From an uncultured Actinomycetes bacterium (GTDB taxonomy: Bacteria > Actinomycetota > Thermoleophilia > RBG-16-64-13), in assembly GCA_963809395.1 (NCBI GenBank), contig CAWEJM010000010.1:117776-181775 (forward strand): 64,000 nucleotides of DNA, read 5' to 3'. Made by a program: the position numbers and the translations under genes. Shown piece after piece: positions 7,651 through 58,882 of this stretch; the first letter of the stretch is position 1, and each line of letters starts with the position of its first letter. The notes under the pieces were generated by a model. It did no database searches, was not told the origin of the DNA, and worked only from the letters and a program-made list of their open reading frames with translations.

Positions 7651-7710
7651 TTGGGGGCGTCGCCGAACTTGGTTCCGCTATTCGCGCTCACCGTTTGTCG
7701 GTCGCGTGCC

Positions 7711-8913: not shown

Positions 8914-9073
8914 CTCACCGCGCGACCGCGCGGGCGGCGCATAGGCTACTACAGACGGGTAGTGAGCAACAAGGCCGGGCCGTCACATTTCCAGAGGCTG
9001 ATTTCGACTTGTGGAGGGATTGGGATGCGCCTAAGATGGGTCGGCCATTTCTCCACGCAGTCCGGCTTGTCGA

Positions 9074-10867: not shown

Positions 10868-11730
10868 CCAGCTCGTAGCCAGCGGCGCGCAGCCGCTTGA
10901 TGATGGAGGGCAGCGCCTCGGCGGTGTGTTTGCCGGCCATGTGCATCAGCACGATGGCCCCATTGTGAGCGTTGCCCATCACCGTCTCCGTGATTTGGGC
11001 GGCGGTGCGGCCCCGCCAATCGTTGGTGTCGACATCCCACATGACCACGTACTTGAAGCCCTTCTCTGCGGCCACCTCGCACGTCTTCTGGTCGATGAAC
11101 CCGCCTGGAGGGCGGAAGAGCGCGACGGTGGGGGCTCCGGTCAGTTCCCGGTAGTGATCGGTGCCGTTCCCGATCTCGATGCGCAAACCACGCTTTGAGA
11201 GCTTCGGGCAATTGGCGTGGCTACGGGTGTGATCGCCCACTTCGAAGCCGCCGGCGGCGATCTCCTTGAGCCAGGCTTTGGCCCCAGGTCGACGTAGTGA
11301 CCGATGACGAACAGGGTCGCCGGCACTTTGTATTGTCTGAGCACGGCGAGCGTCTTGCGAAGCCTTCTCGCCCTGGTAGTTGTCGTCGAAGGTGAGGGCG
11401 ATCCACTTGCGGTCGGCGGGGCCGTGCCTGACGATCGGGGCGGCGGTCTGCGCAGCGACGTGGTCGTCGTGCTCGAGCTGAGCTGTCGACGTGGTCGACC
11501 ATGGCTTGTAGAGGTCACTCCGGCCTCTGTCGTGGTGGTCGTGGTCGACGTAAGGGTCGAGGAGGTCGACGGGAACCGCGCTGGCGGTGGTCGCGCCCGG
11601 CAGTCCGGTGGTGCTCGTGGAGTCCTCGGGCGAGGCGCATGAGGCGATGAGCACGACGGCGAGTCACGAGCCGCCGCTGCAACCGTACGCGCAACTCCCA
11701 GACCCAGGTGCCGTCGACGTCGGACCGTCT
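10839..11730 (-). CDS. polysaccharide deacetylase (NodB/CE4 family), probable lipoprotein, frameshifted
   Basis: NodB motifs (IALTFDDNY, LFRPPGG, VVMWDVDTNDW, LMHMAGKHTAEALP); middle of domain (KTLAVLRQYKVPATLFVIGHYV) lies in second frame (ORF 11141..11860), so at least two frameshifts; lipobox LIASC preceded in another frame by Tat-like RRRRHLGLGVARTVAAAA; 5' boundary uncertain. Confidence 0.7.
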
Positions 11731-11859
11731 TCCGGGCGAGCGATCGCCGTGAACTCTGCTCCGCTTTCCATGCCGCGATTCTACGCTCGCAGGCCTTCGG
11801 GATCCTCGCGGGACGTGCGGCGCTGACCGTCCGTCGCCACCTGCTAGAATCCCTCTGCA

Positions 11860-14760
<2,901 letters not shown>

Positions 14761-19023: not shown

Positions 19024-20087
19024 ACTTTGCTCCGGTACGCGCGGATGATCCGGGGGATCACATCGTGGAGGTCGCCCACGATGCCGTAGTGGGCCACGGA
19101 GAAGATGGGGGCCTGCGGGTCGGTGTCGATGGCCAGGATGCGGGCCGACTCGTCCATGCCCGCTCGGTGCTGCACCGATCCGGATATGCCGGCGGCGATG
19201 TAGAGCTTGGGCCGCACCGTGGTGCCCGTCTGCCCGATCTGGTGCTCGTGGCCGATCCAGCCGGCGTCGACCGCCGCCCGGGTGGCGCCTACCACTCCGC
19301 CGAGCGTGTCGGCCAGCTCGCGGATAAGGGCGAAACCCTCCTTGGAGCCCACGCCGGCGCCGCCGGCGACGATGATGGCGGCTCCCTTGAGGTCGACCCT
19401 CTTCTCTTCTAGGCTCCGGCTGATCACCTGCACGCAGAGGTCCTCGGCGGGCAGGTCGACCGGCACTGGGATCACCTGACCGCGGCGCCCTGGTTCGGGA
19501 TCGGGCAGCCGGAAGACACCCTCGCGTACGGTGGCCATCTGCGGCCGATGGTCGGGCGAGATGATGGTGGCGATGATGTTGCCCCCAAAAGCGGGCCGGA
19601 TCTGATAGAGGAGCTGCTCGTAGTCGCGCTCCTTGGTGTGATGCGGACCGATGCGCAGGTCGGTGCAATCCGCGGTAAGACCGGTGCGGAGCAAGGACGC
19701 CACCCGGGGAGCGAGATCACGGCCCGTTGTGGTCGCGCCGTACAGGACGATGTCGGGTTGGTGCTGCTTGATGAGCTGGGAGATGACACGAGCGTACGGC
19801 TGGGTCAGGTAGTCGCGCAACGCCGGGTCGTCTGCCACGTACACGCGATCGGCTCCGTGACGCTATCAGCCCCTCGGCCAGACCGGAGACCTCGGAACCG
19901 ATGAGGACCGCCCCGACCGGGGTCTGCCAGCTCGGCTGCCAACTCCCGGGCTCGGCCCGAGCAGTTCCAGGCTGACCTCGGCCGCGCGCCCGTCGTTCAC
20001 CTGGACGAAGACCCAGACTTCGCGCGGGCCGGCGCCAATGCCGCCCGCCGCTGCGGCCCTATCGTCCGCCGCCCGGTGCTCCGGCAC
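19020..20087 (-). CDS. etfA: electron transfer flavoprotein alpha subunit
   Basis: C-terminal FAD-binding domain intact (IVAGGAGVGSKEGF...LYIAAGISGSVQHRAGM); N-terminal domain (VWVFVQVNDGRAAEVSLELLG) in ORF 19866..20333 after frameshift near 19850-19900; start tentative. Confidence 0.75.
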
Positions 20088-20101
20088 GCGGTGTCGCCCC
20101 G

Positions 20102-20997
20102 CTAGCCAAGGATGTGCTCCTCGATCAACTCGTGTACCAACGCCGCGACGCCTTCGTCGGTGGGCTCGACCATGCGGGCTTCGGCGGGCGATAGTTGGAC
20201 GCTGGTGATCTTCTTGACCCGGGTGGGCGACCCGCGGAGGCCGACCTCGTCGCGCCCGGCCCCGACGGCCTCCATGTCCCAGAGTACGATGCGGGCCCGG
20301 CATACCGGCCGGCCCTGGCGATCGATCATGCACACCTCGGCCTCCTCGTTCTCCGGGTCCAGATAGCTGTCATCGTAGGGGCGGAGCAACTCGGCGTCGG
20401 CATGTTTGTAGGTCATGAGCAGTCGCGCGCTGGGCGGCCGGGGATCGTTGGTTTCGCCCGTGATGGTGAGCAGCGCCGGCAGCGGGGCGCGCAGCGTCTC
20501 GAAGCCGCCTTCCACAGAGCGGGTGGCGGTGATGGAGCCGTCGTCGATGGCGTCGATGCGGCTCACGCAGGTGATCTGCGGCAGTCCCAGCTTCTCAGCA
20601 AGCTGGGGGCCCACCTGGGCGGTGTCCCCGTCGATCGCCTGGCGGCCACAGAGGACCAGGTCGTAGTGGCCGATCTTTCGGACGGCCAAGGAGAGGGCGT
20701 AGCTGGTGGCCAGGGTGTCGGCACCGGCGAAGGGCCCGTCGCAAAGCAGGATCACCTCGTCGGCTCCCCGATAGAGAGACTCGCGCAGCACCTGGGCTGC
20801 CGCGGGCGGTCCCATGCTGATGACGGTGACCCGGCCCCCGTGGCTCGCGAAGCGAGGGCCTCTTCCAAGGCGTTGAGATCCTCGGGGTTGAAGATGGCGG
20901 GAGGGCGGCTCGGTTGACGGTGCCGTCGTCGTTCATGGCCTGACCGGTGATGTTCTGGGTATCGGGGACCTGCTTGGCCAGCACCACGATTCGTAGA
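20102..20997 (-). CDS. etfB: electron transfer flavoprotein beta subunit
   Basis: C-terminal 237 aa intact (AGADTLATSYALS...QVGPQLAEKLGLPQ); N-terminus MSLRIVVLAKQVPDTQNITGQ (GTG start near 20997) joined through frameshift near 20900. Confidence 0.75.
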
Positions 20998-28856: not shown

Positions 28857-30411
28857 ATGCCTACTGCGCCGGGCAACGGTCGCCGGCGCGCAGCCCTCGT
28901 CATCCTTGACGGGTGGGGCTGCGCGCCGCCCGGCCCGGGCAATGCCATCTCGTTGGCCGACACGCCGGTCTGGGACGCCCTGTGGGCGCGGTATCCACAC
29001 GTCCTTCTGGAGGCCAGCGGCGAAGCCGTCGGCCTACCTCCCGGCGTCATGGGCAACTCTGAGGTCGGTCACCTCACTCTGGGGTCGGGTCGGATCATCT
29101 ACCAGGATCTTTCCCGCATCAACCGGGCCATCGCCGACGGTTCCTTCTTCGAAAACCAGGTGCTTGGGGCCGTGATGGACGGAGTCGTCGCCCGAGGCCG
29201 GTCTCTTCACCTCATGGGGTCTGCTGTCCGACGCAGGAGTGCACTCTTCTCTCGACCACCTGAAAGCGCTCGTGACGATGGCGCACCGGCGCGGAGTGCC
29301 CCGGGTGTTCGTCCACGCCTTCACCGACGGCCGGGACACGTCGCCCACGGCAGGCGAGGCCTTCATGCAGGACCTGGAGGCGTTCCTCGAGGCGGAGGGA
29401 CTTGGTGTCGTAGCTACGGTTTCCGGTCGTTTCTACGCCATGGATCGTGACCGGCGGTGGGAGCGGGTGAAGCGCGCCTATGACGCCTTGGTGCGCGGCC
29501 AGGGGCTCGCGGCGGCAAGCGCCATGGCCGCCATCCAGGAGTCATACGCTCGGGGCGAGACAGATGAGTTCGTCCAGCCCACGATCGTGTGCGCCGACGC
29601 GGGTTCGCGGGTCTGCGCCGGTGATGGGGTCATCTTCTTCAACTTCCGTCCGGACCGGGCGCGGGAGCTGGCAGCGGCCCTTACTCAGGCCGACTTCGCC
29701 GGGTTCGACCGTGGCGGTCCCGCGCCGTCGGTCGACTTCGTGGGAATGACCGAATATGACCCGAGTCTCCGCCTGGCGGTCGCCTTTCCCAAAGAGGAGC
29801 CTCGTCACGTGCTGGCCGAGGTTATCAGCGCCGCCGGCCTCACCCAGCTCCACATCGCCGAGACCGAGAAGTACGCGCACGTGACCTTCTTCTTCAACGG
29901 AGGGCGGGAAGAGCCGTTTCCGGGAGAGGTGCGCAAGCTGGTGCCCTCCGCCAGGGACGTGGCGACGTACGATCTCAAGCCGGCCATGAGCGCCTACGAA
30001 GTGGTCGATTGCCTCGAGGAGACAATGGCCGAGAACCCGGTCGACTTCGTGGTTCTCAACTTCGCCAATCCCGACATGGTCGGGCACACCGGCGACATCC
30101 CGGCGACGGTGGAGGCCATCGAGCACGTCGACCGCTGTCTGGGGAGGGTGTTGAAGGTCTTTGGTGGGGTGGGAGCGAAAGTCATGGTGACGGCCGATCA
30201 CGGAAACGCCGAATCCATGCTGGAAGCAGATGGCAGCATCAATACGTCTCATAGTACCGACCGGGTTCCCCTGGTCCTTCTTGAGGAGGGCGCCGTGTTG
30301 CGCGAGGGAGCCGGTCTCTCCGATGTGGCCCCGACCTTGTTGTGTTTTCTAGGGTTGGACAGACCCTCGGAGATGACGGGGCGGCCTCTCTGTGAGGGCG
30401 AACAAGAGTAG
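28857..30411 (+). CDS. gpmI: 2,3-bisphosphoglycerate-independent phosphoglycerate mutase
   Basis: ATG after RBS aaggag; iPGM motifs ([34 protein letters not shown]); frameshift near 29230. Confidence 0.85.
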
Positions 30412-30512
30412 GACGTAGGCAAAGGCGCGCTTGCGATGGTACCTTAAGGGGTAAGATGTCTGGCAATGCAGCTCATGGAGAGCGAAGTCGGCTACGGGAG
30501 AGGTAGATCGAA

Positions 30513-30731
30513 GTGACGTACGTACTGGTTGCCCTGGATACGATTCTCGGTTTGGCGGTCCTGCTTCTTGTGTTTCTTCACTCGGGGAAAGATGCGGGTC
30601 TTTCCACCACGTTCGGTGGATCCGGCGCCTTCGGCGGGAGCGGGGTGGTGCAGAAGAACCTCGACCGTCTGACGATAGGGTGCGCGGTCGCCTTCTTCGT
30701 CGTGACGATAGCTCTTGTCTATATCATCTGA
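30513..30731 (+). CDS. secG: preprotein translocase subunit SecG
   Basis: 72-aa ORF, two TM segments flanking Gly-rich LHSGKDAGLSTTFGGSGAFGGSG motif; follows tpiA-gpmI as in many bacteria. Confidence 0.75.
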   Translation: MTYVLVALDTILGLAVLLLVFLHSGKDAGLSTTFGGSGAFGGSGVVQKNLDRLTIGCAVAFFVVTIALVYII

Positions 30732-30846
30732 TGAGCCGATACGACGAGAGACGTCCGGAACGCACGAGAGTGCGGAGGAGGTGGTAGCGCAACGAAGGCT
30801 CGGCAGGTTGGCGTGGGGTGTCTTCGAAGCTAAGGAGGGGAAGATT

Positions 30847-32602
30847 TTGAAACTAAGTAAGCGTACTTGGTTCGGGCTCGTTCTTGCGGTCGTTCTGGTC
30901 GGTGCGTCTGATGGCGGTCGCCGCGTTGTGGCGGTGGCGGCGAGACACGAACTACCGCAGCTGCAGGCGGCGAGAAACCCGTCAAGGGCGGCACTCTCAA
31001 TGTCTATCTCGGCGAACATCTCCTTTATCGATCCGGTGCTCGCGTTCGAGTCCGAGGGGATCCAGGTCGATCAACGCTCTTTCGACAGCCTCATCGCAGT
31101 TCGACCTGCAAGACTTCCGAAGCTCAAGCCCGACGTGGCCGACGTCCTGGGATGTCAACGCCGACGCCACCGTGTTCACCTTCCATCTGAAGAAGGGCAC
31201 GAAGTTCCACAACGGCAGGGAAGTGGTGGCGGCGGACTTCAAGTACGCGTGGGAGCGCCTCTCGAACCCGGCCAACAAGTCCGAACTACGGCTTCCTCTT
31301 GAGCATGGTCAAGGGCTACGACGAGATGCAGGCCGAGACCAATCCCGCCACCGAGCTGAGCGGGGTCAAGGCGCATCGACAACTACACCCTCGAGGTGAC
31401 GCTCTCCTATCCGTTCGCCGACTTTCCGAATGTGGTCGGCTTCCCGGATTGCGCTCCGGTTCCCAAGGAAGAGGTGGAGAAGGATCCCAAGGCCTTCGCG
31501 GCCATGCCTATCGGCAACGGCGCCTTCAAGATGGCCGAACCGTGGGTGGCCGGGGCAAGGTCGTCAAGGTCGTGAGGTTTGAAGAGTACTCGGGCACTAA
31601 GCCGAACATCGACGGCATCATACTTCCATGAGTACAGCGACGTGAACACGGCCTTCCTGGATTTCAAGGCCGGCACCCTCGATTGGATCCAGATTCCCAG
31701 CGGCCAGTACAAGGCGACGGCGGCCGAGTACGGGCCGGCCGACGACGGCTATACCGCGAACCCGGGCAAGCAGGTCCAGAACGGCACGGAGTTGGGAATC
31801 GTCGAGCTCCTCTTCAACAACCAGGATGAGCTGTCTCAAGAACGCCGATCTGCGTCGTGCCATCTCGCTGGCCATCAACCGGCAGGCCATCTGCGACACC
31901 GCTTGGGAAGGGCTTCGGAAGCCCGCCAGCAGCGTGATCCCTTCCAGTACTTCCCGGCTACGAAGAGAACGCGTGGCAGTACAGCCACTACGACCTCCAG
32001 GCGGCCAAAGACATGCTCGCGAAGGCCGGCTATCCGAATGGGCAGGGGCTGCCGACCATCAAGCAGTCCTTCAACTCCGGAGCCGGGTCATGAGGAAGTG
32101 GATGCAGCTCGTGCAGGCCGACCTAGCGGCCATCGGCATCAACACCGAGTTCGACACCAGCGACGGGCCGACGTACTGGGGCAAGGTAGGCGACGGGGAC
32201 TACCAGATCGGTCGCAGCGGCTGGATCGCCGACTATCCGACGATCGACAACTTCCTCTCCACCGCTCTTTTACAGCACGTCCGGCCACGAACTTCGACCA
32301 CTACAAGAGCAAGGCCGTGGACGACGCCATCACAGCGGCCCGCGCAGATTGCCGACACCGCTGAGCGGATGAAGGCCTCGCAGGCGGTTGTAAGACTGAT
32401 CGGGGATGACTGCCCCGAGGCTCCCATTGCCACCTACGCGCACCAACACGTGGCCTCCGGCTCGGGTGCACAATCTGACCTACAGCCCGATGAACTTCCT
32501 GGACTTCGTGAGGCTGCTGGATCACCCAGTAGGTGGGCAGCGGCAGCAGGAACGGATACGAGCGTACTGTTAGCGGACGTTCGAGTTGAGTGCGAGCGGT
32601 AG
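30847..32602 (+). CDS. ABC transporter substrate-binding protein, peptide/nickel family 5 (OppA/DppA-like), heavily frameshifted
   Basis: Family-5 SBP fragments across at least six ORFs/three frames (FTFHLKKGTKFHNGREVVAADFKYAWERL; IDNYTLEVTLSYPFADFPN; AISLAINRQAICDTAW; WIADYPTIDNFL); RBS aaggagggg + TTG start; boundaries approximate. Confidence 0.7.
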
Positions 32603-32663
32603 GATGCCCTCGAGGGCATCCTACCGCTTCGTCTAAGGTCGCCGGTCTCGTAAAGGGCTTCGT

Positions 32664-33635
32664 ATGCTGAAGTACATCGGACGCAGGATCCTGCAGATGA
32701 TCCCGGTCTTCATCGGGGTGACCATCCTGCTGTTCCTACTCCGGTCTCCTGCCCTTGTGCCCGGCGATCCGGTGCGGATGCTCGCCGGAGAGCGGAACGT
32801 ATCGCCCTCCGTGCGGGCGCAGGTGATCAAGGATTACGGTCTGGACAAGCCGATATACGTCCAGTACTACCGCTACATGGGGAAGTTGGTGCAGGGCGAC
32901 CTGGGGGAGTCATATCAACTGCAGAGGCCGGTGCGAGACATCCTGTTCGAGAAGTTCCCGAACACTCTCAAGCTCGCCCTGGTCGCCATTCTGATCGAGG
33001 CGGCTCTCGGCATTTCCGCCGGGATCCTATCGGCCGTAAGACGGTATTCGTTCTGGGACATGCTCGTCACGTTGAGCACGTCCGTGCTTGTGTCAGTGCC
33101 GGTCTTCTGGCTGGGCATGGGCTTGCAGATACTCTTCGGCATCAAGTTCAAGCAATGGGGCCTGCCGTATCTCCCTGTCTCGGGCATGTCCGGAGACCAG
33201 TTCCCATTTTGGATCCACGTGATTCTTCCCGCCTTCACTCTGGCCTCGGTCTCTACCGCGTACGCCGCCCGGATAGCGCGCAGCCAACTCCTGGAGGTCA
33301 TGGGACAGGACTACATCCGCACTGCCGCGGCCAAAGGTCTCACCGGCGGACAGGTCATACGGCGGCACGCGTTGAAGAACGCCATGATACCGGTGGTCAC
33401 CTTCCTGGGGCTCGATCTGGGCGCCATGGTCGGAGGGGCCATTCTCACCGAGACGGTCTTCAACTGGCCTGGAGTCGGGTTGGCCATATACCACGCCATC
33501 GATCTGCGCGACTGGCCCATCGTGACGGGTGGCGTGGTCATCATCGTGATCATGGTGATGGTGATCAACCTGTTGGTGGATATCAGCTACGCGTTTCTCG
33601 ATCCCCGTATCCGCTACGGCCGGGTCGCCAGGTAG
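32664..33635 (+). CDS. peptide ABC transporter permease (OppB/DppB-like)
   Basis: Intact 323-aa ORF, 6 TM, BPD transporter EAA region (YIRTAAAKGLTGGQVIRRHALKNA). Confidence 0.85.
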   Translation: MLKYIGRRILQMIPVFIGVTILLFLLRSPALVPGDPVRMLAGERNVSPSVRAQVIKDYGLDKPIYVQYYRYMGKLVQGDLGESYQLQRPVRDILFEKFPNTLKLALVAILIEAALGISAGILSAVRRYSFWDMLVTLSTSVLVSVPVFWLGMGLQILFGIKFKQWGLPYLPVSGMSGDQFPFWIHVILPAFTLASVSTAYAARIARSQLLEVMGQDYIRTAAAKGLTGGQVIRRHALKNAMIPVVTFLGLDLGAMVGGAILTETVFNWPGVGLAIYHAIDLRDWPIVTGGVVIIVIMVMVINLLVDISYAFLDPRIRYGRVAR

Positions 33636-33730
33636 GGGCCGAAGCATGTTCAAACGATCATCCAAAGCGGAGACTCCCGTATCCGCGGCGGTCGTGCGAG
33701 CCAGCGGTCGAGCCCGGCAGCCTTGACGAG

Positions 33731-34606
33731 ATGGCGCCGGGCCGCACCTTGCGGGCCGACGCGTGGCGAAGGCTTCGCAAGAACAAGCTGGCTCTGGCCG
33801 GGCTGGTGTGGATCATCCTCATGATCCTCATCGCCGTGAGCGCGGATCTCTGGGTTCCTCGATATCTGGGCAACCCTACCTACATAGACACGACGACGGT
33901 CGCGCAGCGGAAGCTGCTACCACCGTCCGCAAGCCATCCCTTCGGCACGGACAAGCTGGGTCGCGACGTGGCCTCGCGGGTGATCTATGGGGCACGGGTG
34001 TCCCTTCTCGTCGGTGTTGTGGCGGTGGCGATCATGGTCTTCATCGGGCTGTGCTGGCCGGCGCTATCGCCGCCTACTACGGCGGCTGGTGGGACGCGAT
34101 CATCATGCGCACGGCGGATGTCTTCTTCGCCTTTCCCTACATCTTGTTCGCCATCGTACTGATCGCGGTGCTGGGCAAGGGCGTTGCAGAACGTGTTCCT
34201 GGCCATCGGGATCCTGGGCTGGCCCAGCATCGCCCGGGTGTTCCGGAGTTCGATCCTGACCGTCAAGGAAAGCGAGTATGTCGATGCGGCGCGCGCCATG
34301 GGGGCATCCGCGCGGCGGATCCTCACCCGTCACATCATGCCCAACTCGGTGGCCCCGATCATCGTGTACGCGACCATGAGCGTCGGGGGCGCGATCCTTA
34401 CGGAGGCGGCGCTGAGCTTTCTGGGCATGGGAGTGCAGCCCCCGGCTCCCTCGTGGGGCGGGATGCTTTCCGAGGCCCGGTCACTGCTCTTCACGGCTCC
34501 CTGGATGATGCTGTACCCAGGCATCGCCATCATCACGACGGTGCTGGCCTTCGTCCTCCTGGGCGACGGCCTGCGTGATGCCCTCGACGTAAAGCTCAAG
34601 GAGTAG
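33731..34606 (+). CDS. peptide ABC transporter permease (OppC/DppC-like), frameshifted
   Basis: N-terminus [32 protein letters not shown]; EAA-loop and C-terminal TM region intact in ORF 34184..34606 ([23 protein letters not shown]); two frameshifts between. Confidence 0.8.
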
Positions 34607-36743: not shown

Positions 36744-37106
36744 GCAGCCCGGGTAGCCGCAGGGGCTCGCCTCGAGCGGGTTCCTGAGGAAAGTCCGGAC
36801 ACCACAGAGCAGGGTGCTGGATAACGTCCAGCGGGGGAAACCCCAGGGAAAGCGCCACAGAAATTACACAGCACGCCGGCTCGGCCGGTTGCGAAGGTGA
36901 AATGGTGCGGTAAGAGCGCACCGGCGCCGTGGTGACACGGCGGCCAGGCAAGCCCCACCCGGTGCAAGGCCGAATAGGGAGGCGTTTGAGGGCTGCTCGC
37001 CCGAAGCCTTCGGGTTGGCCGCACGAGCCGTCCGGCAACGGGCGGCCTTAGATAGATGGCTACCCCAGACAGAATCCGGCTTACAGGGCTGCTACCGCGG
37101 GGGCTC
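36744..37106 (+). ncRNA. rnpB: RNase P RNA, bacterial type A
   Basis: Universally conserved elements read directly: GAGGAAAGTCCGGAC (P4 5' strand), AGGGTGCTGGATAACGTCCAGCGGGGGAAACC, GGTGAAATGGTGCGGTAAGAGCGCACC, CAAGCCCCACCCGGTGCAAGGC, ACAGAATCCGGCTTAC (P4 3' strand); ends approximate. Confidence 0.85.
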
Positions 37107-46228: not shown

Positions 46229-47198
46229 GTGGTGGTACCTGCGGAGAAGACGTCTGTGAACGGACCCACCGAGGCATACCGGGGGAAGGTGCGCTCGCTC
46301 GACCTGGGTGGGCTGCTCGTGGGAGGAGGCGCAGCGTTTCCGCTTCACGGGTTTGATGGAGCGCTGCCGAACCCGCCCCGCGTGTGTCTGGAGGTGTGGG
46401 ACGCCGCGCCGGAAGACTGGTCGCCGGAACTGGCGGAGGTATTCGGCGACGTTTATGACGATGCGTTCGCGTGGGCGCGAACGGGCAGCGTCCTTGGGTG
46501 CAGACGCCCTCTATCTACGCCTGAAGAGCGCGGATTCCCACGGGGCCAGAGAGCAGCTGCTCGAAGTCGCGCGGAGGGCGAGGCGCATCGTGGAGGCGGC
46601 CGACCTGCCCTGTTTTGTGATCGGATGTGGCGATCCCGACGTAGATCGCGTTCTCTTACCCCTCGTCGGGGCCGAATGTGCCGGACGCCGAGTCGCTCTT
46701 GGAAACGCCGAGAACGGCACCTATCGTGACGTCGGCTGGGCTGCGGCGGCAAGCGGGCACGCTGTTGTCGCCTACACCCCCATGGACGTGAGCCTGGCCA
46801 AGCAACTCAACGTTCTTCTCGCCCAGGCGGGTATACCTGAGACGGATATCATCATGGACCCCACCTGCTCCGCCCTTGGTTACAGCTTTGAATATGCCTA
46901 CACGGTGTTCGAGCGGGATAGACTGGCGTCTCTCGCCCAGAACGACGCGAAGATGCAGGCGCCGCTGCTGGCCAACGTGGGTCAGGAGACGTGGCACGTC
47001 AAGGAGTCACGGGCGTCGGAGGAGGAACTACCTGGGCACGGAGAGCGGCTGACGCGCGGAGTGCTTTGGGAGAGCGTGAGCGCGGTCTGTCTGGTGCTGG
47101 CGGGGGCCGATGTCGTCGTCGTGCGCCATCCGTCGTCCGTGCGACTCATCAAAGCGGCGATCGCCGCTCTCGCCGAGAGGACCGACTCGTGGCGTTGA
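46229..47198 (+). CDS. acsD: CO dehydrogenase/acetyl-CoA synthase corrinoid iron-sulfur protein small subunit (delta, AcsD/CdhD)
   Basis: Aligns along length with Moorella AcsD (LGYSFEYAYTVFERDRLASL vs [50 protein letters not shown] vs [30 protein letters not shown]); one frameshift near 46490. Confidence 0.8.
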
Positions 47199-48537
47199 GT
47201 GGTCTCCAGGTCTTCAAGCTGCTCCCAAAGACCAACTGTAAGGACTGTGGCTACCCCACCTGCATGGCGTTCGCGCTGCAGCTTGCCGCGGGAAAGACGA
47301 CGCTATCGGCGTGTCCGCACTTGGCTCCTGACGGTACTGGCCACCTTGGCCGATGTAGCCACGGCCGCTGTTCGTCGAGTGGAGATCGGACCGGCGGAAG
47401 ACCGGACGATCGTGGGGGAGGAGACGGTTCTCTACCGGCACGAGAAGCGCTTCGAGCACGCTCCGGCGCTGGCGGTGCTGGTCGACGACTCTCTTGACGA
47501 TGAGGGGTTCGCGGGATCTGATCGAGGACTTCCGCCACCAGCGGTTCGAACGGGTGGGGGAGATTCTGCGGCCGCGCCTGCTGGCGGTCGGATCGGCCGA
47601 CACAGATCGTCTTAAGTCCAGAGTGCGGACGGCCGCGGAACGGACTCGCGCCGGGATCGTGATCGTCAGCGACGACCCCGAGGCCCTCCTGGCGGCGGGC
47701 GAACCCATCAAGGAGTCGCGACCGCTTTTGTGTGGCGCCGGTCCCGCCACTTTCGACCGGGTCGCGGAAGTGGCGAGGACTCTTGACGTGCCCTTCGTGC
47801 TACGGGGGCAGAACCTGGAAGAGTTGGCCGACCTCGGCCGGCGGGCCCTGGACGCGGGTTTCGAACAGGTGGTGCTGGAGCCGGTGGTGCAGACGGCCGG
47901 TGATGCCCTGCAGGCGCATGTGTTCGTGCGCCGGGCCGCGGTCCGCGACAAGATCAAAGCACTTGGGTTCCCGACTATCGCCTTCCCCTGCCGGCTCACC
48001 GACGATCCCTTGCTTCAGACGGTGCTGGCCTCTGCCCTGATTGCGAAATACGCGGGCATCGTGGTCGTAGACACCATTGACCCCGCTCATAATCTACCCC
48101 TCCTCGCGCTTGCCCAAGGTCTCTTCACCGACCCGCAGAAGCCCATGATGGTGGATGCAGGCATCTATCCGGTCGGTGTACCGGGGCCGGAAAGCCCGGT
48201 GTTGCTCACCACCAACTTCTCTCTGACCTACTACACGGTGGTGGGCGAGGTGGAGAACAGCAAGGTGCCGGCGTGGCTCCTGGTGATGGACGTGGAGGGA
48301 CAGTCGGTGCTCACCGCCTGGGCGGCGGGCAAGTTCGTGGCCGACGCCATCGCCCCGTTCGTCAAGAAGTCGGGCATCGAGGACAAGGTGGGACACCGGA
48401 GGTTGATCATCCCCGGCTGCGTGGCCGGCATTCGGGCCGAGCTTGAGGCTGAGCTGGGCGACTGGGAAGTGTCCGTGGGGGTGCGGGAGGCTGCCGATAT
48501 CCCACGCTACCTGCGCGCGCTTCTGAGCGCTCGGTAG
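47189..48537 (+). CDS. acsC: corrinoid iron-sulfur protein large subunit (gamma, AcsC/CdhE)
   Basis: N-terminal [4Fe-4S] motif VALSGLQVFKLLPKTNCKDCGYPTCMAFALQLAAGKTTLSACPHL, TIM-barrel and C-terminal B12-binding Rossmann domain (ORF 47494..48537); at least two frameshifts 47330-47520. Confidence 0.8.
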
Positions 48538-48542: not shown

Positions 48543-49491
48543 GTGCCGAGGATGCACGGAGAGGGAGTGGCCGGCGGCGCGGCCGTGATGAGCAGGCGAG
48601 CCGGGCAGGCCGAGGGACCGGGCCGGAAGCCGGAATGGCTCAAGAAACCGCTGCCCGACTCAGGCGCCCTGCGAAGGATGGAGACCATGCTGCGCGACAG
48701 GCGTCTCCACACGGTGTGCGAGAGTGCGCTGTGCCCGAATCTCGGTGAGTGCTTTGCCCGCGGCACGGCGACGTTTCTCATTATGGGCGACGTGTGCACC
48801 CGGGACTGTGGGTTCTGCGGCGTAGCCAGCGGCCGGCCGCTCAGCTTGGAGGCGGACGAGCCCCAGAATGTGGCTGAGGCGGTGGCTCGTCTGCGACTCC
48901 AGCACGTGGTGGTGACGTCGGTCACCCGGGACGATCTCGGCGATGGAGGGGCTGGCCACTATGTGGCCACCATGCGGGCCATTCGGTTCCGGGCGCCGGA
49001 GGTGACGGTGGAGGTGCTCGTTCCCGACTTTGCCGGTAGAATGGAGGACCTTGACCTAGTGCTGGATGAGGCTCCCGAGGTCTTCAACCACAATGTCGAG
49101 ACCGTCCCGCGTCTGTACAAGACCGTGCGGCCGCAGGCGGTGTACGAGCGTTCCTTGGCGGTGCTGCGGCGCGCCGCCGAGAGGAATCTGAGTCTGGTCA
49201 AGACCGGCTGGATGGTCGGACTGGGGGAGACCGAGGACGAAGTCAAGGCCCTGCTCGGAGAAGTGGCCGAGGTCGGGGTCGACATGGTCACCATCGGGCA
49301 GTATCTGCGGCCGTCTGGGCGGCACCTGCCGGTGACCGAGTACGTGCGACCGGAGGTGTTCGTCAGCTACCGGCTGTGGGGCGAAGCTCTCGGCCTGCAG
49401 GTGCACGCGGCCCCGTTCGTGCGCAGTTCCTTCCAGGCCGGCGAGAGCTTCGCCCGAGCCAAGACGCGTGGTGGGAAGGAAGAGCGAGTGA
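48543..49491 (+). CDS. lipA: lipoyl synthase
   Basis: KPEWLK, CxxxxC plus radical-SAM CTRDCGFC cluster motifs, NHNVETVPRLY, GLGET; probable stop TGA at 49489-49491 in adjacent frame. Confidence 0.8.
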
Positions 49492-50291
49492 TTCGTCGTA
49501 GCCGAGAACATCAACGTCATGAGAGCGGCCGTAGGCGCCGCGCTCAAGGCGCTGGACAAAGGCTCCCATCCAAGATCTGGCCAGGCGGTCGGTGGCGGCT
49601 GGGGCCGATGTCCTGGACGTGAATGTGGGGCCCGCCCGCAAGGACGGTGAGAGATCTCATGACTTTCGTCATCGAGGCTCTGGCCGAAGTGGTGAGTTGC
49701 CAGCTCTGTCTGGACACCACGAACGCCGCGGCCATGGAAGCGGGGATCATCCGCTGCCAAGAGCTGGGCCTGCCCCGGCCCATCGTCAATTCGTTTTCCC
49801 TGCAGCCGGACAAGCTGGAGCAGATCCTGCCGCTGGCCGCTCGATACGGGTGCGAGATCATCGGTATGACCATGCGGGGCTCCATCCCCATCACGGCTGC
49901 CGATCGCTTGAACCTCGCCTTCGAGCTGGTCACGGCCGCCAACGAGGCCGGCATCAGCAACGACCGCATCTTCATCGACCCGGTAGTCTTGCCTCTGGGA
50001 GTCGATATGGGCCAGCGACACGCGGTCGCCGTGCAAGAGGTCGTGGCGGCGCTGCCGCAGATGTTCGATCCCCCGGTACGCAGCCTCTGTGGACTGACGA
50101 ACATCTCGAGCGGAGCCCCCAATCATCTGAGGCCGGCGATCAACAATGCCTATATGGCCATGCTCGCGGCTTTGGGCGTCGAGCGCGGTGATCGTCGACG
50201 TCCTCGATCCTGAATGCATGCGTACCGTACGTTTGGTGCGCGCGTTGAGCGACCAGTCCCTGTATTCTGTCTCGGATGCCGAGTTCCACTA
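49488..50291 (+). CDS. acsE: methyltetrahydrofolate:corrinoid/iron-sulfur protein methyltransferase (AcsE/MeTr)
   Basis: Pterin-binding fold aligning with Moorella AcsE (FVVAENINVM, ADVLDVNVGPA, CQLCLDTTNAAAMEAG, LCGLTNISSGAP); GTG start overlaps lipA stop; frameshifts at start, near 49600 and near 50190. Confidence 0.8.
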
Positions 50292-50308
50292 GCAACGGGA
50301 GGTCTAGA

Positions 50309-51136
50309 GTGTTCAGACTAGTTGAGCGCAAGGAGATGTCCGAAGGCACGGTGATCCTCAACGAGATCGAGGCGCCTTCCATTGCGCGCAAGGCTAGACC
50401 CGGTCAGTTTGTCATTCTCAAGGCCAATGAGACGGGCGAACGCATACCTTTGACCATGGCGGATACGGATCCCGATAAGGGGACGATAACCGTGGTCTAC
50501 CAGGTGGTAGGCAAGTCCACGGCTTTGTTCAAGACCCTGCAAGTGGGTGACGGCTATCAAGACGTCATCGGCCCCTTGGGCAAGCCGACCCATCTCGAAA
50601 AAGTCGGCAAAGTCGTGTGCGTGGGCGGCGGCACCGGCGTCGCGGTCTTGTACCCGATAACTCGCGGTCTCAAGGAGATCGGCAATCACGTGATCGGCAT
50701 TATCGGCGCGCGCACCAAGGATCTACTCATTCTTGAAGACGAGATGAGGGCCGCTTCGCACGAGCTCCACGTGTGCACGGACGATGGCTCCTACGGTCAT
50801 CACGGCTTCGTCACCGAAGTGCTGGAGCGAGTCCTCGGCGAAGAGGACATCAAGCTCGTCGTTGCCATCGGACCCGTTCCCATGATGAAAGCGGTATCCA
50901 AGGTTACGAAGGAACGCGGTATACCGACGATGGTCAGTCTCAATCCGATCATGATCGACGGCACCGGGATGTGCGGTGGCTGTCGCGTCTCCGTGGGTGG
51001 CGAAACGAAGTTTGCCTGTGTGGATGGTCCCGAGTTCGACGGACATCAGGTAGATTATGATGAGTTGACGCTTCGCCTGCGGGCCTATCACGAAGATGAA
51101 GAACGCTGCTACGGCGAGTTCTGCAGGAATGGGTAG
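50309..51136 (+). CDS. NfnA/SudB-like FAD and [2Fe-2S] oxidoreductase subunit (PyrK family)
   Basis: Intact ORF, GTG start VFRLVERKEM; FAD/NAD-binding ferredoxin reductase fold with C-terminal GMCGGCRV cluster motif. Confidence 0.7.
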   Translation: MFRLVERKEMSEGTVILNEIEAPSIARKARPGQFVILKANETGERIPLTMADTDPDKGTITVVYQVVGKSTALFKTLQVGDGYQDVIGPLGKPTHLEKVGKVVCVGGGTGVAVLYPITRGLKEIGNHVIGIIGARTKDLLILEDEMRAASHELHVCTDDGSYGHHGFVTEVLERVLGEEDIKLVVAIGPVPMMKAVSKVTKERGIPTMVSLNPIMIDGTGMCGGCRVSVGGETKFACVDGPEFDGHQVDYDELTLRLRAYHEDEERCYGEFCRNG

Positions 51137-51146
51137 GGAAGGTTAA

Positions 51147-52573
51147 GATGTCGGAAGAAGCGACCAAGAAAGCGGCAAGAGAGCACATCGCACGGCATGC
51201 GATGCCGCAACAAGATCCCGACGGCGAGGGCCAAGAACTTCGATGAGGTTCCGCTTGGCTACAGCGCCGGAGACGGCCATGGAAGAGGCGGAAAGGTGTC
51301 TGCAGTGCAGAAACCCCGCCTGCGTGAGCCGGTTGCCCTGTCGGGGTGGATATCCCCGGATTCATCCGGCACATCAAGGAGGGGGAGTTCACAGAGGCGA
51401 TCAGAAACCTCTGGGGCAAGAACAGCCTGCCGGCGGTGTGCGGGCGGGTTTGTCCTCAGGAAACCCAGTGCGAAGAGAAATGCATCTTGGGCAAGAAGGG
51501 CGACCCGGTCGCGATCGGCAACCTGGAACGGTTTGCCGCCGACCAGGAAAGAGAACACGGTAGCGGCGCTTTGCCGCCCATAGCCGAGGCCAGCGGAAAG
51601 AGAGTGGCGGTCGTAGGGTCAGGGCCGGCAGGGTTGACGGTGGCCGGTGACCTGATCGCTCAAAGGTCACGAGGTGACGGTATTCGAAGCCTTCCACAAG
51701 CCCGGCGGTGTTCTCGTCTACGGTATTCCCGAATTCAGATTGCCGAAGGCCATCGTCGCCCAGGAAGTCAATTTCCTTGAGCGGCTGGGCGTGAAGCTGG
51801 TGTGCGATCAGGTGGTCGGAAGAACCATCACGGTCGATGAGCTCTTTGAGGAGGGTTACGATGCCGTGTTCATCGCCGTCGGAGCCGGGTTGCCGACTTT
51901 TCTGGACGTACCGGGCAAGAACCTCATCGGCATCTACTCCGCGAATGAGTACCTGACCCGGGCCAATCTCATGAAGGCCTACCGGTTCCCCGAGTACGAT
52001 ACCCCCATTATCCGGGGCAAGAATGTCGTCACGCTCGGGGCCGGCAACGTGGCGATGGACTCCGCCAGAACCGCCTTGCGCCTGGGGGCGAGAGCTCTCG
52101 GATCGTCTATCGGCGCTCGAGAACGGAGGTACCGGCTCGGAGCGAAGAGGTGCACCATGCCGAAGAAGAAGGGGTCGAATTCTTCTTCCTGGCCGCCCCG
52201 ACCAGATTCATCGGAAATGAACGGGGACGCGTTGTCGGCATGGAATGCAGAGAAGATGTGTCTTGGCGAACCGGACGAGTCGGGGCGTTGCCGGCCGGTT
52301 CCGATGGAAGATTCTGAGTTCGAGCTGGAGTGCGACCTGGTCATCGTCGCCGTGGGCGCCGGTGCCAATCCTTTGCTGACGAGATCCACCCCTGGGCTCG
52401 AGCTGAACAAGTGGGGTTATGTCAAGGTCGACGAGAAGACAGGCAAGACCACCAAGAAGGGCGTGTGGGCCGGTGGTGATATCGTTACCGGATCCGCCAC
52501 GGTCATACTGGCCATGGGAGCCGGCAGAGTAGCCGCCGATTCGATTCAGGATTACCTTACGTGGGGCTGGTAA
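51147..52573 (+). CDS. NfnB/SudA-like (GltD-family) NAD(P)H oxidoreductase subunit, frameshifted
   Basis: N-terminal 4Fe-4S region (ERCLQCRNPACV, IPGFIRHI, CGRVCPQETQCE), FAD/NAD(P) Rossmann domains (VAVVGSGPAGL, TLGAGNVAMD, VWAGGDIVTGSATV); at least four frameshifts. Confidence 0.7.
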
Positions 52574-52633
52574 GCTCTGTATCAAGCGTGTTATCTGTTT
52601 TGACAAGTGCCGATTTGACGCTGTGAGGAGGTC

Positions 52634-55314
52634 GTGATGCCCGTCGACGCCGAGCCGACTGGGGCGCAGCCGGTGACTCTCACCCTTAACGGGCAGGAGA
52701 TCCAGGCGCTTCCCGGCCAGACTATTCTGGAGGTGGCGCGCGATGCGGGCGTCGACATCCCCACGCTTTGCCACGATCCTCGTCTCGAACCGTACGGCGC
52801 CTGCCGCCTGTGCCTGGTTGAGGTCGAGGGGGCTCGTGGACCTCTGGCCGCCTGTGGGACCGCCATCCGCGAGGGCATGAGCATCCAGACCCACAGCGAG
52901 AAGATCCGCAAGCTGCGGAAGTTCGTGTTGGAACTGCTGCTGACCAACCACCCGCTGGATTGCCCCGTGTGCGAGGCCGCGGGCGATTGTCGCCTGCAGG
53001 ACTACGCATACGAATACCTCGTCGACATGGTGCCTTGGGGCTGGCGTGCGCCGGTGTCCGGCGATGCCGGGGACCATCCGAACGTGGCCCACTTCAGCAG
53101 CCGCTGCATCCTCTGCGGAAGATGCGTCCGCATCTGTCGGGAAGTCATGTCCATCGGGTGCTGGGGCTATCGTGAAACGGGGCTATGAGAGCGAGGTCGA
53201 CACGCCCTATCGCCTGCCGCTGCAGGAGGTGGGTTGCGTGTCGTGCGGGCAGTGCGTGAGCACCTGCCCGGTCGGATCGGTTATCGGCCAGCGGACGCCT
53301 CAGGGGGCGCGGCAGTGGCAGACAGGCAAGACTGTCACCACCTGCTCGTACTGCGCCGACGGCTGCCGGCTGGTGCTGCACAGCTATCGCGGCAAGGTGG
53401 TTCGCGTCGCCTCAGAACTCGAGAAGGGCCTCAACGCCGGCAACCTGTGCGTCAAGGGGCGCTTCGGGATGGGCTACGCCAACGCCCCCGACCGGCTCAC
53501 CCAGCCACTGGTGAGGAATGCCGAGGGACTTCTGGAAGAGGCCTCTTGGGAGGAGGCTCTCGCGCGCGTCGTCGAGAAGGCCGCGGCCGTCCGGAACGAG
53601 CGGGGCGGCCAGGCTCTTGCCGCGGTGTGCGGCACGCACTGCACCAACGAAGCTGCATATCTGCTACAGAAGCTGGTGCGCACGCTTCTCGGGTCGAACA
53701 ACATCGACGCGATCGACAGCGCCGAACAGGCGGCGTCCGACGAAGCCCTGACTGCCGCGTTCGGTCTGGCCGCGGCGACGAACTCCCGCAAGGATCTGGC
53801 CGCGGCCGATGTGATCTTGGTCATCGGCGCGAATCTCACCGAGTCCGACCCGGTGCTGGCGCTTGACGTGATCAAGGCTCTTCGTAAGGGCAAGACCGTG
53901 ATCGTGATCGACCCGCGCACGACGGAGCTGGCGCGGCGCGCGACGCTGCACCTGGCCGTGAAGCCCGGGACGGATCTTGCGGCCCTTCGCGGGATCCTGC
54001 GGCATATTGTCGACCTCGGGCCTGCAGGACGGCGAGTTCATCGGCGCGCGCACCGAGGGTTTTGCGGCCCTCCAGGCTTCGCTCGAAGGGGTGGACGTAG
54101 CGGCTGAGGCCGCCGCGTGCGGGGTGGATGCCGATGCGCTGCGGGCGGCGGCCGTGGCCTACGGCCAGGCCGCCGCCGCCGCTATCCTGTACGGCCCGGG
54201 GCTGGCAGGAGGCCTCGGGGGCTCGCTCGCGCCCAGGCAGTCGCAACCGTACGTGCCGTCGCCGACTTGGCCCTGCTCACCGGCAACGTCGGACGCCCGG
54301 GCACCGGCGTGTACCCGCTGCGCTCCGGCGCCAACTCGCAGGGACTCAGCGACATGGGAGTGCGTCCCGACCGCCTGCCTGGAGGAGCGGCTTGTCCGGA
54401 GCGCGGAGCGCCCGGCAAGACGACGGCCCAGATACTCGAGGCCGCGGAAGCCGGGGAAGTCGGTTTCCTGTATGTCGTGGGAGCCGACCCGGCGCTGGCG
54501 CTTGCCGACGAGGCCCGAGTCCGAAAGGCTCTCGAAGGAGTGGACTTCCTGGTGGTCCAAGAGAGCTTCCTCAGCGACACGGCGCGCTACGCTCGACGTG
54601 GTACTCCCGGCGGCTGTGGCCGGAGAGGACGAGGGGACTTTCACCAACGTCGAGCGCTTCGTACAGAGAGTGCGCCCGGCTGCGCCCACCCTCGGCAAGA
54701 GCCTTCCCGACTGGAAGATCATCCAGGAGATCGCGAACCGGTTGGGCGCTGACTGGTCGTACGCTACGCCGGCGGACGTCATGCGCGAGATAGCTGAGGT
54801 GGTCCCGGCCTACAGAGGCATTTCATATGTCAGGCTCGAGGACGAAGCGCTGCAGTGGCCGTGTCCCGGCGCCGAGCACCCCGGCACCCCGATCCTGCAT
54901 GCTGAGGAGTTCACGCGGGGCAAAGGGTCTTTCGCGGCGGTCGAAGGTACGCCGTCCCGGGCATCGCCGGCGACGGACGCCGACTATCCCTTCGTGCTGC
55001 TCACCGGCTCGGTGCTCGAACACCACGGAACGGGCGTGAGGTCGCGGCGTTCGCCCGGCCTGACCAAGCTGGTGGAGGAGGCTCGGTTGGAGATCAACCC
55101 GGCCGACGCCGAGCGTCTCGGCGTTGCCGACGGCGATCGCGTGAGGGTGGTCGGTCGCACCCTCGCGGCGATCGAACTGCCTGCGTGGGTCACCGGTCGC
55201 GTGCCGGCTGGAGTGGTGTTCGTGCCCGGCTTCTCACCGGCGGCGCCTGTCACTCGCCTCCTGGAGAGCGATGCGAGCGGAGTACCGATGGTGCAGGTCG
55301 AGCGCCTGGTCTAG
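52634..55314 (+). CDS. fdhA: formate dehydrogenase catalytic subunit (Mo/W-bisPGD, Cys-type, NuoG-like N-terminus), frameshifted
   Basis: N-terminal 2Fe-2S ferredoxin and 4Fe-4S domains (CHDPRLEPYGACRLCLV, HPLDCPVCEAAGDCRLQ), MopB domain with active-site Cys TTCSYCADGCRL (no in-frame TGA, so not Sec), FDH motif RSGANSQG, C-terminal MGD cap; several frameshifts across ORFs 52634, 53046, 53977, 54117. Confidence 0.8.
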
Positions 55315-57882: not shown

Positions 57883-57971
<89 letters not shown>

Positions 57972-58807: not shown

Positions 58808-58882
58808 TGGCTCCTCGGGCAGGACTCGAACCTGCAACACCCTGATTAACAGTCAGGTACTCTACCATTGAGCTACCGAGGA
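58808..58882 (-). tRNA. tRNA-Asn (anticodon GTT)
   Basis: Reverse complement TCCTCGGTAGCTCAATGGTAGAGTACCTGACTGTTAATCAGG...GCAGGTTCGAGTCCTGCCCGAGGAGCCA: acceptor TCCTCGG/CCGAGGA, anticodon loop CTGTTAA, CCA encoded. Confidence 0.85.

Follow-up and report, generated by a model that had tools for sequence, protein, structure and literature searches.

A redox module at the end of a Wood–Ljungdahl operon

The sequence analyzed here (the window) is a stretch of 64,000 nucleotides (nt) from contig CAWEJM010000010.1 of assembly GCA_963809395.1, the genome of an uncultured Thermoleophilia-like actinobacterium. Between positions 50309 and 55314 it carries three co-directional genes on the + strand: nfnA and nfnB, for the two subunits of NfnAB, and a large gene for a NuoG-type iron–sulfur (Fe-S) protein derived from formate dehydrogenase (FDH). 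They are the last three genes of a Wood–Ljungdahl operon with the order acsD-acsC-rSAM-acsE-nfnA-nfnB-large subunit, in which rSAM denotes a radical S-adenosylmethionine (radical-SAM) gene. The trio had been described, in an original prediction made from the sequence, as an Nfn-like pair in front of a cysteine-type FDH. The gene content, boundaries, and spacing given there are correct, with measured gaps of 11 nt between nfnA and nfnB and 63 nt between nfnB and the large gene; nfnA is intact, whereas nfnB and the large gene are broken as open frames by six and four indels, respectively. Because the large subunit has lost the catalytic Cys and His and nfnAB occupies the slot that nuoE and nuoF (nuoEF) hold in related genomes, the locus is better understood as a redox-module swap than as a cysteine-type FDH.

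The first gene, nfnA (50309..51136, + strand), runs from a GTG start at 50309 to a TAG stop at 51136 behind a GGGAGG ribosome-binding site. Its product, the PyrK-like small subunit with FAD/NAD-binding and [2Fe-2S] domains (FAD, flavin adenine dinucleotide; PF10418 and PF00175, NAD_binding_1), scored 404 bits against NF004862 (cut-off 220). It matched 5JCA_S, the small subunit of P. furiosus NfnI, at 5.9e-94 and 4YLF_A, the NfnA of T. maritima, at 1.4e-83. The [2Fe-2S] motif of one Asp and three Cys, DGTGMCGGCRV...FACVDGP, is conserved in the alignment with these two proteins.

The second gene, nfnB (51148..52573, + strand; ATG at 51148, TAA at 52573), encodes the large subunit, with a GltD fold, two [4Fe-4S] clusters (one of them with a Glu ligand), the bifurcating FAD, and the NADPH site; Fer4_20 and Pyr_redox_2 were matched on fragments of the broken frame. 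An intact orthologue scored 615 bits against TIGR01316 (cut-off 471.75) and matched T. maritima NfnB (4YLF_B) at 3.3e-186. Once corrected for indels, the window protein retains both cluster motifs, including the Glu positions and CPQETQCEEKC, the FAD motif GSGPAG, the NADPH motif GAGNVA, and the segment IPEFRLPK, which holds the Arg over the FAD N5, equivalent to P. furiosus Arg201, a residue regarded as important for bifurcation (PMC10482914). No extra domains were found in NfnA or NfnB. From these motifs and profile scores, nfnA and nfnB are predicted to encode a canonical NfnAB, nfnB being an open frame only after six indel corrections; NfnB would bind NADPH and carry the bifurcating FAD along with two [4Fe-4S] clusters, and NfnA would bind NAD(H) and carry a FAD and a [2Fe-2S] cluster. 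As in known NfnAB, the curated profiles are passed, the ligands and motifs are present, and the small subunit is encoded before the large. Stand-alone examples (locus L162 and the contig of P0142) are two-gene units, whereas in the subclade of the window genome nfnAB lies inside the Wood–Ljungdahl operon, before the NuoG/FDH-like gene and at the former nuoEF site.

The large subunit has lost the catalytic Cys and His of formate dehydrogenase

The large gene (52637..55314, + strand; ATG at 52637, TAG at 55314) encodes a NuoG-type, FDH-derived Fe-S protein (BfuA/SfrA-like) that is 83% identical to its orthologues. The Pfam domains Fer2_4, NADH-G_4Fe-4S_3, Fer4_Nqo3, Molybdop_Fe4S4, Molybdopterin, and Molydop_binding were found, which bears out the NuoG-like N-terminal Fe-S domains of the original prediction. 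The best solved relatives are the alpha subunits of NAD-dependent FDHs (9WXB_B and 6TG9_A, 1e-165 to 1e-167). On TIGR01591 (Fdh-alpha, cut-off 666.25 bits), the closest intact orthologue, P0001, scored 587.8 bits and P0004 582.5 bits, compared with 912.4 bits for the canonical P0117. Assignment to another family, such as NuoG proper, had been named as the result that would speak against an FDH; the protein indeed falls short of the curated FDH profile, but it also fails the NuoG model TIGR01973 (388.6 bits for the closest intact orthologue, cut-off 470), and there are no nuo genes in the window.

The sequence TTCSYCADGC (53337..53366, + strand), which had been taken for a Cys-type active site, is the CxxCxxxC motif of the FS0 [4Fe-4S] cluster at the start of the MopB domain: it lies in the match to PF04879 (Molybdop_Fe4S4) and aligns with the ttCayCgvGC cluster motif of R. 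capsulatus FdsA. The active-site loop is found further on, at 53697..53738 (+ strand), as the degenerate sequence NNIDAIDSAEQAAS. Aligned to the FdsA loop NNTDTCARVCHSPT, it has Glu-Gln at the position of Cys386-His387. Since the large gene has no in-frame TGA, its product is not a selenocysteine enzyme.

Alignment columns were tallied over the best 120 database homologues, 116 of which, at ≥52% identity, were counted as the clade. Neither Cys nor His occurs at the catalytic pair in any of the 116 sequences, and both columns are variable (E, D, N, G, W, R, L, and K in the first; Q, L, K, R, S, and W in the second); among the best 120, CARLCH is found only in four homologues at 45–47% identity. 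The catalytic Arg (FdhF Arg333, FdsA Arg587) is present in the window copy (YPLRSGANSQG) and kept in 66/116, the Glu within G-E-[DN]-P in 12/116, and the Arg within T-G-R in 2/116. The fourth FS0 Cys (P0001 C271), the sole FS0 column tallied, is kept in 116/116, and the Lys between FS0 and the pterin in 105/116. In an alignment of 18 sequences (A1), all four FS0 cysteines (C236, C239, C243, and C271) are invariant, as are all other cluster cysteines, including the NuoG-like N-terminal ones.

Within the clade, mean pairwise identity is 0.53 in the Mo domain and 0.79 in the Fe-S region, whereas canonical NuoG-type FDHs show the reverse pattern (0.54 in the Mo domain and 0.44 in the N-terminal Fe-S region). 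Mo-domain residues that are invariant in FDHs (n = 77) are kept at 74% in the clade, 59% in SfrA-type proteins, and 55% in NuoG-type outgroups. We read these patterns as indicating descent from an FDH, with an Fe-S wire under strong constraint and a former catalytic domain that is relaxed but retained. With Cys, selenocysteine, and His absent from the catalytic pair, a variable Arg, and a TIGR01591 score below the cut-off, FDH activity of the large subunit is unlikely, contrary to the assignment as a Cys-type FDH, and both catalysis and the pterin cofactor have presumably been lost.

Loss of the Cys-His pair is common in NuoG-type FDH-like proteins: among the nearest cluster representatives at 50% identity (n = 149), only 46 have the pair and 103 lack it. 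Cys-less FDH-like subunits behind NuoEF recur across several phyla: NuoEF-linked examples in Geobacteraceae/Deltaproteobacteria (L006 and L007) have the loops HSAGYAHS or HSAGFAHS, and those in Nitrospira (L008–L017) the loops SSARYGH or SSTRYGH. A contig scan with an alignment query, using patterns common to all NuoG-type proteins, returned only relatives at 29–38% identity; these are outgroups (SfrA-, Nitrospira-, and NuoG-type) and are unsuited to close synteny comparison.

An nfnAB cassette has replaced nuoEF

Orthologous loci were compared for the genes that precede the large gene. In at least 26 metagenome loci, and in L002, L163, L164, and L165, nuoE and nuoF (627–629 aa) stand directly before it, and nuoF overlaps the start of the large gene; in the metagenome loci of this type the large subunit is at least 55% identical. 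Nearly all relatives have this arrangement. The flanks are shared, with zincin-HTH-larC-[RACo/acsDC]-rSAM-[acsE] upstream (HTH, helix-turn-helix) and lon-lexA-pgm downstream. The NuoF proteins of these relatives belong to the bifurcating BfuB class, the best solved matches being the Stn-type 9BOV_B (1e-236) and 8OH5_B (6e-226), with NiFe-Bfu and HydB as further solved relatives. The loci with nfnAB, namely the window, L001, L157/158, L159/160, and L161, make up a single monophyletic group that branches from inside the NuoEF type. An nfnAB cassette has replaced nuoEF in place in this one subclade, which includes the window genome.

The 63-nt spacer between nfnB and the large gene (52574..52636, + strand) is a fossil of the 3′ end of a BfuB/StnB-type nuoF, as recognized by tblastn with the last 21 residues of NuoF. 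It is identical at 52–57 of 66 nt to the nuoF 3′ ends of L002, L112, L114, and L164, and reads KLCIKRVICFDKCRFDAVRRS followed by a stop codon, compared with ELCIKCGACYEKCRFDAVRRS and a stop codon in nuoF; the CxxCxxCxxxC motif is degraded. The spacer supplies the large gene with its GAGGAGG ribosome-binding site and with the TGATG stop/start overlap; in the swap, the last 63 nt of nuoF stayed in place as spacer and ribosome-binding site. The relic is the same in L159 and has been cut down to the ribosome-binding site in L001 and L157. At the left junction, homology to the NuoEF-type loci stops ~16–24 nt before the start codon, and no nuoE remnant was found there.

No NuoE or NuoF gene is present anywhere in the 64-kb window apart from the 63-nt remnant, which agrees with the absence of such partners noted originally. 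Adjacent NuoE/NuoF-like (BfuC/BfuB) genes, the mark of Bfu-type enzymes and FdsABG, are accordingly missing here and are found at ~30 orthologous loci. Separate NuoEF partners had been expected to show that the Nfn pair is functionally independent; their occurrence at the orthologous loci of relatives, with a fossil in the window, points instead to replacement.

The nfnAB genes have a GC content of 0.53–0.61 and, in L001, L157, and L159, a GC content at third codon positions (GC3) of 0.61–0.70, compared with 0.62–0.68 and 0.75–0.83 for their neighbours; in the window, overall GC is 0.58 for nfnA and 0.61 for nfnB, compared with 0.64–0.68 for the neighbours. NfnB is 81–85% identical to its counterparts in Desulfobacterales and other Deltaproteobacteria, which carry nfnAB as a unit of two genes standing alone. 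The low GC and GC3 together with this identity point to horizontal acquisition of nfnAB.

All three genes have been under purifying selection since the swap, with ratios of nonsynonymous to synonymous substitution (dN/dS) of 0.05–0.06 for nfnA, 0.08–0.09 for nfnB, and 0.12–0.15 for the large gene (Lon 0.09, LarC 0.21). The large subunit has undergone only 3 conservative changes after the swap at 324 positions that are conserved in its NuoEF-type relatives.

In L083 (5237–5262) the large gene directly follows acsE, with no nuoEF, nfnAB, or nuoF fossil; it is intact (887 aa) with a different N terminus, and the flavoprotein genes were lost independently. L161 (GCA_001766895.1) is labelled Acidobacteria bacterium RBG_16_64_8 and has the same actinobacterial synteny, from MFS (major facilitator superfamily)-racemase-RNase PH to nfnB, with an NfnB 85% identical to that of the clade; the label of this metagenome-assembled genome may reflect mis-binning.

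The frame breaks are most probably assembly errors

Three-frame translation and nucleotide alignment to an intact orthologue of 83% identity were used to locate the indels. Six of 1 nt (51222, 51267, 51326, 51659, 52093, and 52250) leave nfnB without a continuous open reading frame (ORF), and four (53172, 54017, ~54223, and 54593) do the same to the large gene, which additionally carries two in-frame changes, a deletion of 45 nt and an insertion of 6 nt. After correction, neither gene has an internal stop: nfnB encodes 473 aa, 89–90% identical to intact orthologues, and the large gene 890 aa, 83% identical to intact orthologues of 898–899 aa. The 45 nt missing at 54401 correspond to 15 aa in the region ...ALTDAAAVARAEAAWGAGVSG... 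of P0001, and ~17 nt are extra relative to orthologues at 54223–54240; both length changes are lineage-specific and fall in a surface region of the Mo domain.

Frameshifts are not confined to the redox genes. Twenty-one, mostly +1 insertions, were counted in 13.5 kb of neighbouring and housekeeping genes, where they break the genes for BrkB, the racemase, RNase PH, Ham1, LarC, the radical-SAM protein, Lon, PGM, and NAD synthetase (NadE); examples between 40000 and 62000 lie at 41616, 42121, 43253, 43370, 57379, 59736, and 61148. Since indels occur throughout the housekeeping genes of the window, the breaks in nfnB and the large gene are most probably errors of the assembly consensus and not decay of the locus. 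Intact triplets (276, 473, and 898–899 aa) stand at the same syntenic position in four other, independent assemblies (L001, at 7342–12405; L157/158; L159/160; and, in part, L161), and several homologues in the database, on contigs of megabase size, show the same kind of truncation as the window genes. Elsewhere in the window, several long ORFs are artificial fusions (PfkB+GATase and RapZ+WhiA), and the assembly looks unpolished.

Frameshifts specific to the locus, as a sign of pseudogenes, were considered and rejected as the main explanation, the indel density being modestly above that of the housekeeping neighbours. The most explicit form of this idea, that nfnB, the large gene, acsE, and acsC are true pseudogenes and that the organism of the window is losing the module, is very improbable. 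It could draw on the ten frame-breaking indels in 4.1 kb of nfnB and the large gene (10–12 events in all, or 2.4–2.9 per kb, compared with ~1.6 per kb in the neighbours) and on the loss of parts of the acs genes in relatives. Against it stand the similar, mostly +1, indels in genes such as those for RNase PH, Lon, PGM, NAD synthetase, and the racemase, the complete lack of nonsense codons once the indels are corrected, an identity to orthologues that is the same as for neighbouring genes, an intact nfnA, and the like truncation of several homologues whose contigs are very long, a typical trait of long-read assemblies that have not been polished.

Operon context and the remainder of the window

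Upstream of nfnA, on the same strand, lie four genes of the operon. The acsD-like gene for the corrinoid Fe-S protein small subunit (46260..47198; PF03599 CdhD, 1.4e-21) is 79% identical to AcsD of L083, and the acsC-like gene for the large subunit (47359..48537; PF03599 CdhD, 8e-74) is 78% identical to AcsC of L083, with its N-terminal part further upstream in a different frame. A radical-SAM gene resembling lipoyl synthase (48549..49522; PF04055, LIAS_N) follows; it is syntenic in ~30 loci, and its place a short way upstream of the redox genes is conserved in every relative. The acsE-like pterin-binding methyltransferase gene (49492..50292; PF00809 Pterin_bind; 79% identical to AcsE of L083) contains at least three frameshifts by three-frame reading, and its stop codon lies 16 nt before nfnA. 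Downstream of the large gene is a LonC-type protease gene in convergent orientation. A scan for promoters and terminators between 49400 and 55700 gave nothing above shuffled expectation.

In more distant relatives, the large gene (X) closes operons of comparable content: metF-lpd-like-rSAM-acsE-nuoE-nuoF-X in Gaiellales (L163) and acsD-acsC-rSAM-acsE-nuoE-nuoF-X in a member of the Thermoleophilia (L165). Published neighbourhood figures of actinobacterial Wood–Ljungdahl clusters show fdh, nuo, gltD, and lipA (PMC7325909), so the gene arrangement has probably been drawn before, without the present analysis. Retention of Wood–Ljungdahl genes is patchy inside the lineage of the window and its relatives, since acsD-acsC-acsE are present in the window, L083, L112, and L165 and only a short acsE remnant is left in L001, L002, L157, and L159. 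In L157 a Fer2 gene (181 aa) lies between larC and the radical-SAM gene.

The remaining window is housekeeping in character, with pyrF, guaA, uvrA, uvrC, hflX, rapZ, whiA, gap-pgk-tpi, a peptide ATP-binding cassette (ABC) transporter, sodA, and etfBA beside a gene for an acyl-CoA dehydrogenase. The ORF of this dehydrogenase is long, with additional sequence at the N terminus, and adjoins the etfA- and etfB-like genes at 17290–20932 on the − strand; this set could be a bifurcating system of Bcd/Etf type. No fdhD, moa, mob, mod, or tup gene was found within the 64 kb, so that the search for FDH maturation and Mo/W cofactor or transport genes proposed with the original prediction came back empty for the window. 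RNase P RNA of class A lies at 36744–37096 (283.6 bits), and tRNA genes were found for Ala(GGC) at 7530–7602, Leu(GAG) at 57883–57969 (− strand), between lon and lexA, and Asn(GTT) at 58808–58882 (− strand). GC content dips to 0.60–0.62 at 30000–34000, upstream of and into the peptide ABC transporter cluster, compared with 0.65–0.69 elsewhere, and the stretch 30400–32600 yielded no ORF of typical codon bias.

Relation to known complexes and possible function

The system belongs to a modular type of NAD(P)H-linked Fe-S flavoproteins that is already known from Bfu and Stn enzymes, SfrAB, and NADP-dependent FDHs. Stn, or Nfn-Bfu (StnABC of S. ovata, 8OH5; also 9BOV), shares with it a GltD/NfnB-type NADPH module, a NuoG-type chain, and an inactive FdhF-like end (PMC10482914), and StnB is the protein most similar to the NuoF displaced at the window locus (1e-236). 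In Stn, however, the GltD module is inserted in the NuoG-like subunit (~1170 aa) and is non-bifurcating, bifurcation being the task of StnAB (NuoEF), whereas at the window locus NuoEF is gone, NfnA is present, NfnB has kept the hallmarks of bifurcation, and NfnB and the large subunit are encoded by separate genes (473 and 890 aa). SfrAB, the soluble NADPH-dependent oxidoreductase of Geobacter sulfurreducens, and the Desulfuromusa pairs (L004, L005, and L011) likewise have a Cys-less NuoG-type alpha subunit encoded directly after a GltD-family flavoprotein gene. They differ in their identity of only ~34–35%, the lack of NfnA, the lack of a Wood–Ljungdahl context, and the build of SfrB, a single protein of ~670 aa with a NuoF-type Fe-S domain before its GltD part, a domain that NfnB (473 aa) does not have. 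SfrA is by profile closer to NuoG than to FDH (418 versus 386 bits), and no discussion of the active-site residues of SfrAB was found in the available papers on this enzyme.

The NADPH-dependent FDH of Moorella thermoacetica, the alpha subunit of which contains selenocysteine, combines a GltD-family NADPH part with a NuoG-type FDH alpha subunit, as do fusions of the P0257 type. It has been purified as an active enzyme, with its beta subunit encoded by sfrB2 and its alpha subunit by sfrA2 and fdhF3 (PMC13040438). A GltD/NfnB-type flavoprotein that feeds a NuoG-type FDH, as envisaged in the original prediction, thus has genuine precedents, although CARLCH is retained in the P0257-type fusions, whereas the window protein carries Glu-Gln at that position and its Mo domain is relaxed. 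FdsABG (Fdh-Bfu; R. capsulatus 6TG9 and C. necator 6VW7) is the best overall match of the large subunit (1e-165) and has the ancestral order nuoE-nuoF-alpha that is seen in the relatives of the window. Unlike it, the window protein is without Cys386, His387, and several cofactor-contact residues, and its nuoEF genes have been replaced by nfnAB.

We lean toward the view that NfnAB, having taken the place of NuoEF beside an inactive FDH-like Fe-S scaffold, forms a module for coupling NAD(P)H with electrons of low potential. Such a module would be soluble and would serve the Wood–Ljungdahl pathway: NfnAB would split the electron pair of NADPH between NAD+ and a low-potential branch and might pass electrons directly to the large subunit, which would be an Fe-S conduit or scaffold that does not oxidize formate, in the manner of SfrA or of the inactive FdhF-like domain of StnC. 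The Fe-S wire of the large subunit has been kept whole, with sites for one [2Fe-2S] cluster, one His-ligated and two further [4Fe-4S] clusters, and FS0. Stn, SfrAB, the Moorella enzyme, and GltD-FDH fusions are precedents that make this coupling reasonable. The FdhF-like domain of StnC is described as “catalytically inactive” and is nevertheless required for assembly (PMC10482914); among fusions in which a GltD module is inserted into a NuoG-type FDH, P0257 has the Cys-His pair and P0260 lacks it, and the SfrB+SfrA-type pairs are Cys-less.

Several observations weigh against this reading. Neither NfnA nor NfnB has a docking domain, and their identity to stand-alone NfnAB is ~84%; NfnB lacks the N-terminal NuoF-type Fe-S domain of SfrB, and the window proteins do not show the insertion of a GltD module in the NuoG-type domain that characterizes StnC. 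The large subunit shows no adaptive change after the swap, and in L083 its gene persists without a flavoprotein gene in front, so that the product may use a partner encoded elsewhere. The large subunit also keeps more of the FDH-invariant Mo-domain residues than does NuoG, and its Wood–Ljungdahl setting is one where an FDH would make sense. Some of these facts would suit mere neighbours on a shared transcript, with the imported nfnAB acting as a stand-alone NADH-dependent ferredoxin:NADP+ oxidoreductase outside any complex and the large Fe-S protein functioning by itself, with soluble ferredoxin, or with partners from genes at other sites. NfnAB is canonical in all features tested and is 81–85% identical to nfnAB units that have no FDH-like neighbour, and the large subunit sequence shows no response to the swap. 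Most species have either Nfn or Stn (PMC10482914), a pattern that fits NfnAB taking over the cellular role of a Bfu-type enzyme without a physical link. However, the replacement was cassette-exact, with the ribosome-binding site and start codon of the large gene kept, the trio is adjacent and intact in at least four further genomes with gaps of 18–63 nt, and GltD/NfnB-type modules have repeatedly been fused or paired with NuoG/FDH-like subunits elsewhere. We regard independent action of the neighbours as possible but doubtful. Physical docking of NfnAB on the FDH-derived Fe-S subunit, giving a hybrid bifurcating complex of an undescribed kind with an Nfn core on a Bfu-type “A” subunit, strikes us as unlikely.

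It is still less probable that the large subunit is a real, non-canonical FDH or CO2 reductase that binds a Mo/W bis-molybdopterin guanine dinucleotide (MGD) cofactor through another ligand, such as the conserved Asp two residues upstream. We know of no Mo/W FDH without a Cys or selenocysteine ligand. Such an enzyme would catalyze the first step of the Wood–Ljungdahl pathway with NADPH from NfnAB as donor, or with NADH from NuoEF in the relatives. The large gene is last in Wood–Ljungdahl operons (L163; the window, L165, and L112), its top profile and Protein Data Bank matches are FDH alpha subunits, it has kept 74% of the Mo-domain residues invariant in FDHs and retains both the FS0 cluster and the Lys that lies between this cluster and the pterin, its dN/dS is 0.12–0.15, and papers on these lineages list fdh beside nuo, gltD, and lipA (PMC7325909). 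These points are opposed by the catalytic pair columns, which vary freely and hold Cys, selenocysteine, or His in 0/116, by a catalytic Arg that is not conserved, and by the loss in most sequences of residues of the MGD-contact type (the Glu of G-E-D and the Arg of T-G-R). The score also fails to reach the curated cut-off for FDH, evolution is faster in the Mo domain than in the Fe-S part, opposite to true FDHs, and fdhD, moa, mob, mod, and tup are absent from the window.

Implications

The notable feature of this locus is the in-situ exchange of one bifurcating core for another, marked by the nuoF fossil. It amounts to a natural experiment in modular bioenergetics, in which a BfuBC (NuoEF) core has given way to an unrelated NfnAB core at one orthologous locus, and it makes directly testable the question of whether a Bfu-type Fe-S subunit can be served by an Nfn core. 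If NfnAB does dock on the large subunit, low-potential electrons from NfnB would pass along a wire of five clusters to a Wood–Ljungdahl enzyme or to a re-purposed pterin site, the unrelated cores BfuBC and NfnAB would be interchangeable on one scaffold, and, as a corollary, the “fdh” of actinobacterial Wood–Ljungdahl reconstructions would not be a formate dehydrogenase.

For annotation, the CxxCxxxC cluster motif is easily taken for a Cys-type active site, and the Cys-His pair is missing in about two thirds of the nearest NuoG-type “FDH” families. In Thermoleophilia- and Gaiellales-like Actinomycetota, the last protein of the Wood–Ljungdahl operons, often annotated as “formate dehydrogenase alpha”, lacks the catalytic Cys and His across the clade, and claims of a complete methyl branch in these lineages need to be re-checked.

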